Shown here piece by piece: positions 45,062 through 45,970 of a stretch of 64,000 bases of DNA; the first letter of the stretch is position 1, and each line of letters begins with the position of its first letter. The stretch is from assembly GCA_951406725.2 (NCBI GenBank), contig OX597818.1, forward strand, positions 31,434,001 through 31,498,000, read 5' to 3'. This DNA is from Octopus vulgaris (taxonomy: Eukaryota). The notes under the pieces were generated by a model. It was not told where the DNA came from and did no database searches. It saw nothing but the letters and a program-made list of their open reading frames with translations. A program made the translations under genes and the position numbers.

Positions 45062-45967
45062 AATCAGCCGAAATTGCTAAGATGATCTGGTTCTTGACTG
45101 ATGACTGAGGGCTTCGAATGTCCCGTCCTGTGGTTCTTGTGTCGTCTCTGTGGTGTTTCATGTTCTTGTCCATGTCTGTAATTATTTTTACTGTTTACAT
45201 ATATAATCGGCGGCTACGTATCCACAATTGTCCTTATACGATAAGTATATTTTTTCTCTAGCATTGATACGATTCTTGATCTGTCTCTTTCTCTCTCTCT
45301 CTCTCCTCCCTTATTCCCCTTCCTTTCTTTCCCTCTCCATCCGTCTTTCCCCCCCCTTCTACGTTTCTCTATCTCTCTCACCTCCAGTCCCCTCGGTCTG
45401 TCTCTTTCTTCTCCTCCCTCGTCCACCTTCTCTCTCTTTTCATCTGTCCCTTTCTCCTGTCTTTTGTTCTCACGTGACCGCTAGCCACTGCTGAGCGCTC
45501 TTTTCGTTCCAGCAGTCGCCGAAGCAACACGTATTTGTTCGTCTCCCTGCGGCCATTAGGCACAACTTCATAAGCCAGCCCTAAACTCAACTCGTCCTGT
45601 CGAAAGACCCTTGTCCTACGTCCTGGTTTTGTTTTGTTTTTTATTTTTACCGTTATTGTTTTTACGTTTTTGTATTCTTATTGGTGTCACGTATTCTGTA
45701 TTTTTGTTCGTGTACTTCGTTCGTTTTCCGTCCTCGTGTTGTATACATTCGAAGCTTTCTTCCAGGGGATCTAATGCGCTTGGCTTAGATTTCCCTTGGC
45801 GGGCTGTCCAAATCGGAGCAATCATCAAGATTAATCAGCCGAAATTGCTAAGATGATCTGGTTCTTGACTGATGACTGAGGGCTTCGAATGTCCCGTCCT
45901 GTGGTTCTTGTGTCGTCTCTGTGGTGTTTCATGTTCTTGTCCATGTCTGTAATTATTTTTACTGTTT

Positions 45968-45970
<3 letters not shown>
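45062..45970 (+). mobile_element. Non-coding element with 138-bp direct terminal repeats (family G), flanked by (TA)n
   Basis: Apparently identical repeats at 45062-45199 and 45833-45970; the interior shares GTCGAAAGACCC and CTAAT..CTT.GCTTAGA motifs with the family H PLE 3' UTR. Confidence 0.8.
45817..45880 (+). ncRNA. Candidate non-circularly permuted hammerhead ribozyme
   Basis: AGCAA-TC-A-TCAAGA ... TCAG-CC-GAAA-TTGCT ... TCTTGA-CTGATGA-CTGA: stem III AGCAAT/ATTGCT, stem I TCAAGA/TCTTGA, stem II TCAG/CTGA. Confidence 0.55.

Follow-up and report, generated by a model that had tools for sequence, protein, structure and literature searches.

A probable PLE derivative of Octopus vulgaris carries a predicted hammerhead ribozyme with a split core strand and a kink-turn

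Among described ribozymes, the hammerheads of type SGC (Eckert et al., 2023, PMC10085705) offer the closest comparison to the one reported here. They present the cut site, GAAA and CUGAnGA in this order, connect helix I to helix II by a short A/U-rich linker, and have a stem that joins the free ends of these two helices. The family G element of Octopus vulgaris shares these traits, but its helix II 5' strand and contact stem precede the cut, its block C is split at A9/G10.1 and apparently braced by two helices, P0 and P1, and a predicted kink-turn would close helix III onto the contact stem, P4. The cited sections of Eckert et al. place type SGC only in metatranscriptomes and in no genome of a known organism, and give no more than 1-2 nt between CUGAnGA and the stems in all known hammerhead alignments; the part of PMC3088659 cited here puts core insertions in known hammerheads at 1-2 nt. 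Hammerheads in PLE pseudo-LTRs, for which the cited sections propose a role in precursor RNA processing (Cervera and de la Pena, 2014, PMC4209133), resemble the family G motif in lying in a PLE terminal repeat about 150 nt from the 3' end. They are described there as minimal type I motifs with a palindromic helix III, which must dimerise and carry one additional nucleotide at 9/10.1, and in this they differ. Non-LTR retrozymes (bioRxiv 10.64898/2026.07.22.740005) are, according to the cited part, non-coding, ribozyme-bearing and PLE-derived with a head-to-tail junction, as family G appears to be. They comprise at least two complete units, and every unit holds a type I hammerhead, whereas family G amounts to 1.18 units (one of 770 nt and a partial repeat) and has no type I motif. 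The standard kink-turn, as set out in the cited sections of PMC5061560 and PMC4382518, runs from a helix through a 3-nt bulge, a G.A and an A.G pair into a second helix, an arrangement that the family G sequence predicts as well. In the literature searched, which took in few subscription papers, we found no report of a genomic or PLE-borne non-circular hammerhead, of a long 9/10.1 insertion, of a Naiad hammerhead or of truncation at the cut, nor of a natural hammerhead with an internal kink-turn.

The locus lies in a 64,000-nt window of the O. vulgaris assembly (contig OX597818.1, positions 31,434,001 to 31,498,000), and all coordinates below are those of the window. In a self-comparison of the window, the repeats 45062-45199 and 45833-45970 are identical across exactly 138 nt at an offset of 771, and (TA)-rich target arrays lie upstream (44955-45061) and downstream (45974-46020), precisely as the initial annotation had described. 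Alignment of the repeats and copies resolves the locus into a plus-strand unit of 764 nt (45207-45970), made up of a pyrimidine tract, a 3'-UTR-like body, the ribozyme and a fixed 3' end, which follows a truncated copy of its own 3' end and an AT-repeat spacer of 7 nt (45200-45206). The 5' repeat, or pseudo-LTR (45062-45199, plus strand, 138 nt exactly), is thus 5'-truncated, and it holds no complete ribozyme because the cut site is absent from it. An X7 contig (record 25) has a like repeat-spacer-body junction, 2 nt longer by the coordinates read from the contig. The unit is non-coding, in that no open reading frame of at least 100 aa was found in it. An Rfam search gave no match at the gathering score and by E-value only AT-repeat noise, and motif scans of metagenome and viral contigs gave none. 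Two solo copies accompany the element: one on the minus strand (44381-44514, 97% identical), whose start corresponds to 45837, and an old one on the plus strand (48828-48922, 79% identical), which starts near the equivalent of 45874 and ends in (AC)n. Four family G copies end at the same 3' position, with (TA)n or (CA)n beyond it, and vary in their 5' starts, so that family G displays the PLE-type combination of partial tandem, pseudo-LTRs, fixed 3' end and variable 5' truncation. The annotation had also called the element young. The absence of any difference across 138 nt agrees with this, but about 30 positions separate the unit from many family contigs, and its youth is only loosely shown.

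Two further elements of the window have a like ribozyme layout. The first, termed here the 29.6-kb element (28853-29790, plus strand), is 5'-truncated, is 64% identical to family G over 309 nt, and carries an intact AUC site with its predicted cut after 29622. The second, family F (13694-14565, plus strand), is a repeat-body-repeat element that is 62% identical to family G over 159 nt, has its predicted cut after 14406, and is older (85% identity between its repeats). A pyrimidine tract followed by a CAYGTGACC motif is common to the three related elements (45400-45620, 29190-29460 and 14000-14290). In the 29.6-kb element an open frame (28854-29189) lies directly upstream of the region held in common with family G. 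In Atlas this frame is assigned to GIY-YIG (0.94), with agreement among all 10 of the best family-bearing matches and PF01541 on 11-18% of members; Pfam and homolog searches with the frame did not name an endonuclease remnant. GIY-YIG is absent from family G itself, and homolog searches found no full-length partner with a PLE reverse transcriptase. Family G has its hammerhead core in a pseudo-LTR and microsatellites as targets, as PLEs do, and partial tandems, 5' truncation and (TA)n targets are named as PLE traits in the cited sections of PMC8557442. Given these traits and the GIY-YIG-like frame of the 64%-identical relative, the most likely reading of family G is a non-autonomous element derived from a PLE whose endonuclease is C-terminal. 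We consider it likely, taking all lines together, that the locus is a non-autonomous PLE with a rearranged S-G-C hammerhead that has a split strand, a P0/P1 brace and a kink-turn; the architecture, homology, pairing and variants can be read directly, and from them we infer the three-dimensional fold, cleavage after C45823 and mobilisation in trans. The element as such would be an ordinary kind of PLE derivative, while its ribozyme appears to be a new hammerhead variant.

The motifs of the hammerhead core occur in the order AUC (45821-45823), GAAA (45841) and CUGAUGA (45869), that is cut site, G, C (S-G-C). This block order and the I-II contact helix are those of type SGC, and the circular orders CGS, GSC or SCG that types I, II and III need are not found in family G. 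All features of the predicted fold are on the plus strand. It opens with the P0 5' strand (45745-45761), of which 45745-45759 pairs with 45878-45892 just after CUGAUGA over 15 bp (pair probability 1.0), and the P1 hairpin (45762-45799, pair probability 0.88) leads into G10.1 at 45802. The helix II 5' strand (45802-45806, paired with 45836-45840) lies upstream of the cut, as does the 5' strand of P4 (45808-45814), which forms 6 of 7 pairs with 45855-45861 and sits one base from the free ends of helices II and I, like the contact stem of type SGC. There follow the non-bulged strand of the kink-turn (45815-45817; 3n G, 2n G, 1n A), the helix III 5' strand with the AUC triplet (45818-45823), an extra A (45824) and the helix I 5' strand (45825-45830, 6 bp with 45863-45868). 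The stretch 45831-45848 contains a 5-nt linker, the helix II 3' strand, GAAA (45841-45844) and the helix III 3' strand; 45849-45854 is the bulged strand of the kink-turn (3-nt bulge, then G, A and U); and 45855-45892 contains the 3' strands of P4 and helix I, CUGAUGA (45869-45875) and the P0 3' strand. Helix III (45818-45822/45844-45848) and helix I are perfect except for A45824.

Family G keeps CUGAnGA, GAAA, NUH, A15.1-U16.1 and G10.1-C11.1; family F has C16.1, and A15.1.C16.1 occurs in both of its repeats. In none of the three window families does the helix II 5' strand follow CUGAnGA by 1-2 nt, as in the intact block C of type SGC. Instead, the strand after A9 pairs upstream as P0, and the helix II partner lies 5' of the cut in all three. 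The chain would therefore be opened between A9 and G10.1, with P0 and P1 meeting at a four-way junction that would brace the gap, and the kink-turn would let helix III fold back onto P4. With a full helix III, the ribozyme could act as a monomer. From the pairing and the core motifs, self-cleavage is predicted after C45823. The annotation had named this AUC site, and the site is supported by family contigs that lack A45824 and read AUC directly into helix I; the unusual part, the wiring of the ribozyme, had escaped it. Compared by eye with the sequence, the consensus structures of type I, II and III hammerheads, HDV-like ribozymes, twister and pistol did not fit.

Support for the layout comes from shuffled sequence and from comparison between families, with registers and descriptors that were fitted to the loci under study. 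A strict descriptor matched 2 loci in the window and gave 1 match in 200 shuffles (0.005 per shuffle). The relaxed descriptor, itself fitted to these loci, matched 3 loci against a mean of 0.22, and 1 of 200 shuffles reached 3. When the three window families were registered by hand, 95 of 110 cells were paired and 21 of 34 columns showed two-sided change. The count of 95 took in one misregistered P4 row, the correct P4 of the 29.6-kb element having 3 of 7 Watson-Crick pairs. Two-sided change in the same hand registration was seen in 5 of 6 columns of helix I, 4 of 5 of helix II and 3 of 5 of helix III. Nested folding supported P0 in all three elements and P1 in two, and gave probabilities of 0-0.26 to helices II, III and P4, pseudoknots and kink-turns being outside its model. 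Tandem G.A/A.G pairs after a bulge of 2-3 nt occurred at 3 of 3 real loci and at 0 of 111 chance loci. The complete kink-turn pattern (helix, 3-nt bulge, G.A, A.G, helix) is present in family G and the 29.6-kb element, while the bulge is 2 nt in family F repeat 2. For ion-induced folding, the cited part of PMC4382518 gives the rule that 3n is G or 3b is C, and the 3b.3n pairs U.G and C.C of family G and the 29.6-kb element conform to it. The minus-strand copy has a single change in the kink-turn region, T45849G, which falls in the bulge.

Assembled public contigs show how the family varies around this copy. Family G words were found under six organism labels, in 18 runs with at least half of the sampled words, and contigs from four runs (6358, 2294, 4116 and 4) were aligned with 45200-45315 and 45620-45663 masked; the small-share runs X19 and X20 were left out. 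A45824, missing from most family contigs, was left out in 21, 13, 9 and 1 contigs of the four runs, which represent 77%, 35%, 7% and 100% of the depth at this position, itself small. A further 44, 39 and 22 contigs, from the three large runs, break off at 45825, with the element sequence ending in the AUC triplet. These two groups of contigs indicate that most of the family has an intact AUC followed by the 6-bp helix I, and A45824 probably weakens the ribozyme of this copy. In three runs, the depth of the contigs that keep A45824 adds up to about 11,000-19,000. Depth is no copy number, and these values suggest at most that A45824 belongs to a minority subfamily whose site was disturbed when it spread. 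Majority letters of the family turn two G-U pairs of P0 into A-U, do likewise with G-U pairs of P1, and drop two bases between P1 and G10.1, so that P1 abuts G10.1. P1 also varies by G45765A and G45768A, and contigs have a loose end behind 45799. Many contigs read CUGAGGA in place of CUGAUGA. Taken singly, the common letters A45811T and T45859C leave P4 pairs unrestored or break them. Depth rises across the cut from 1.3-1.5M to 1.8-1.9M in X1, from 0.5-0.6M to 1.36-1.39M in X2 and from 0.64-0.99M to 1.4-1.6M in X3. We discounted this rise because the gradient is noisy, this copy's own changes cause a dip, and depth is not copy number. We did not take the X7 contigs that begin at 45825 for truncation points, as they carry 6 further letters and overlap the upstream contig in the manner of graph branches. 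An X7 cycle was likewise rejected as a circular RNA, as any repeat-body-repeat copy gives such a cycle. In run X1, four contigs have a 4-nt insertion in the P0 5' strand (45753-45756), and one contig joins 45756 to 45909, which removes the whole ribozyme.

A like arrangement is found in octopus Naiads. By eye, the published 3' ends of Naiad_Obim and Naiad_Ovul carry every part of the layout in different sequence: a P1 of 8/9 pairs abutting G10.1, a helix II of 6 bp, a P4 of 5 bp, the kink-turn, a helix III of 5 bp, a GUA site, a helix I of 6 bp and CUGAUGA. Their P0 is weak (3 Watson-Crick and 3 G-U pairs of 7), and the two differ from each other in the ribozyme region solely in the bulge. We viewed the last 420-600 nt of 13 of 54 Naiad 3' ends, taking the identities of the non-octopus ones from file order. 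Besides the two with the rearranged layout, 4 had the ordinary C-then-G order and 7 had neither in view, so the rearranged layout was not seen in the 11 other ends viewed. The four ordinary-order cores (Naiad-3_Nbra, Naiad_Hpol, Naiad_Smim and Naiad_Esco) have long helix II regions, look complete by eye, and were apparently missed by the descriptor of PMC8557442. The cited labels of that paper mark Naiad_Ovul as 'HHR_half_core' and give Naiad_Obim no ribozyme label, and Naiads are described there as lacking canonical hammerheads (Craig et al., 2021). Naiads are like the window elements in their (TA)n targets and partial tandems (PMC8557442, cited part), those of octopus in the ribozyme layout as well. 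They differ in having the endonuclease N-terminal to the reverse transcriptase, whereas in the 29.6-kb relative the frame would lie at the C-terminal end, directly before the 3' region; the N-terminal endonuclease that marks the Naiad clade is not found in this relative, and family G has no open frame. A short-motif search showed the octopus Naiad and window-element sequences to be unrelated. The presence of the rearranged module in a distant clade suggests exchange between clades or convergence.

We turn to the 5' ends of the short copies. The annotation had placed the starts of the 5' repeat (45833) and the minus-strand copy (45837) at +10 and +14 from C45823, which our alignments bear out. 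It had counted these as the only two examples; the third window copy, at about +51, had been overlooked, and an X7 contig (record 28) adds a fourth at +9. This X7 copy starts at 45832, is about 85% identical (10 changes in 69 nt) and has a non-repeat flank. Three of the four starts thus fall within a 15-nt window, for which the nominal chance is 3e-5 to 2e-4, with n=4, the 15-nt window picked post hoc and 258 contig loose ends left out of the count. Also left out were the family G unit body and the 29.6-kb element, both starting far upstream, and family F, at -20. Contigs cannot show the ends of molecules, and full-length bodies run through the predicted site. The claim that reverse transcription of a self-cleaved RNA left these truncations is hence borne out in part: three of four starts lie 9-14 nt past the cut, but none of the four (0/4) lies at the cut itself, one lies at +51, and in family F repeat 1 (13694) the start precedes the site by 20 nt, a caveat that the annotation had raised itself. 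A start at -20 is what uncut RNA would give.

If the ribozyme acts on such ends, then transcription through a tandem would yield RNA with a ribozyme near the 3' end of each unit, and cleavage in the upstream unit would leave a 5'-OH at 45825. The non-coding 3' region of about 770 nt would be copied in trans by a PLE reverse transcriptase/GIY-YIG protein, which would nick (TA)n DNA (or (CA)n arrays, which are also targets) and copy from the fixed 3' end. Copying of only the first stretch would leave a solo piece of 134-139 nt, and a copy that began in the downstream unit and ran on past an uncut ribozyme would be repeat-body-repeat; the extra A45824 would favour the latter if it is older than the insertion. 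Run-off of the reverse transcriptase, with 7-12 nt lost at joining, would then give starts at 45832-45837. We place this account, in which cleavage in the upstream repeat sets the RNA 5' end, ahead of each of its rivals, at somewhat less than an even chance. Stalling of the reverse transcriptase at structure is an unlikely source of the starts, since the strong helices stop at 45892 and 45799 and not at 45832-45837.

The best-surviving alternative, which we rate as possible but doubtful, accepts a real ribozyme and denies that it sets the 5' ends. The run 45830-45835 is the sole run of at least 6 A/T that starts between 45701 and 45949, and the release of cDNA, or its joining to (TA)n, could take place there. 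That none of the three clustered starts falls at the cut, and that family F starts upstream of its site, would both be expected from this. In the cited part of PMC11167929, cleavage in PAc, the single PLE analysed biochemically, is dispensable for insertion, ribozyme mutants insert normally in vitro, and no RNA ends are mapped at the cut. Joining through the A/T run fits less well with the junctions, where microhomology to the flanks is just 0-1 nt in both window copies, and with the X7 copy, whose flank is not (TA)n.

The structure might also be a protein-binding or reverse-transcription signal, or a dead relic with a core that no longer cuts. Block C is interrupted, which Eckert et al. assume to be impossible (PMC10085705, cited sections), family F has an NCH site, and the summed depth of 11,000-19,000 for contigs keeping A45824 (again no copy number) hints that a subfamily with a disturbed site is spreading. 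Loss of function is at odds with the retention of CUGAnGA, GAAA, A15.1-U16.1 and G10.1-C11.1 in family G contigs, the 29.6-kb element and two Naiads, and with helices that change while the core stays, variation falling at N7, H17 and the bulge. We therefore regard a non-cutting structure as unlikely.

Less probable again are two other sources of the 5' ends: transcription that begins within the repeat, or a boundary passed on from one master copy whose repeat began at about 45832. The sequence 45835-45840 resembles an initiator motif, and a repeat that starts at 45833 lacks the cut site, so that daughters could inherit its boundary. PLE promoters are placed in the upstream repeat in the cited part of PMC6765202. 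Against this, the starts differ (45832, 45833 and 45837); these positions and the X7 copy's identity of about 85% argue that the three do not belong to one lineage. Nor do the junctions have an untemplated G. A SINE or LINE 3' fragment with a local duplication, chance pairing and no PLE derivation is very improbable: family G has no coding remnant and SINE-like repeats abound in the genome, but the homology to an element in which a GIY-YIG-like frame lies immediately upstream, the like repeat-body-repeat build of family F and the shuffle controls all speak against it.

A broader reading joins cleavage-set ends to the Naiad comparison: an active hammerhead of undescribed architecture (its order non-circular, its catalytic strand divided at A9/G10.1 by a four-way junction, its kink-turn internal), present in several retroelement families of an animal genome and moved between distant PLE clades, namely elements with a C-terminal endonuclease and the Naiads of octopus, whose cut sets the 5' boundary of pseudo-LTRs and solo copies. 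We hold this combination to be tentative and, as a whole, rather doubtful. If true, it would add a hammerhead topology beyond the six block orders recognised by Eckert et al. (a scheme that, in the cited sections, takes the blocks to be unbroken), and an animal, genomic example of the non-circular class. The kink-turn would offer an answer to a geometric puzzle posed there, namely how a distal helix III is joined to the I-II stem. Some Naiads reported to be without hammerheads (PMC8557442, cited parts) would carry one that descriptors missed. With a ribozyme able to act as a monomer, in a family matched by thousands of contigs, the role of PLE hammerheads would become directly testable through copy ends.

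Other features of the window were noted in passing. Ordinary-order minimal PLE-type hammerhead-like motifs occur on the minus strand at about 8060-8090 and 63010-63070, so that two ribozyme architectures coexist in one window, and hammerhead look-alikes occur on the plus strand at 19622 and 54205. Two inverted-repeat pairs (6971-7083/7345-7457, 93%, and 8165-8242/8450-8527, 90%) were seen; the second lies just upstream of the hammerhead-like motif at 8087 and may be an inverted PLE arrangement. Two SINE-like families are abundant, one at 5611-5848, 16530-16877, 22551-22783, 44120-44357, 58628-58868 and other sites, the other at 243-639, 6053-6486, 11375-11802, 31954-32353, 60060-60460 and elsewhere. 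Some 25 nt separate the end of the minus-strand family G copy from a member of the first of these.
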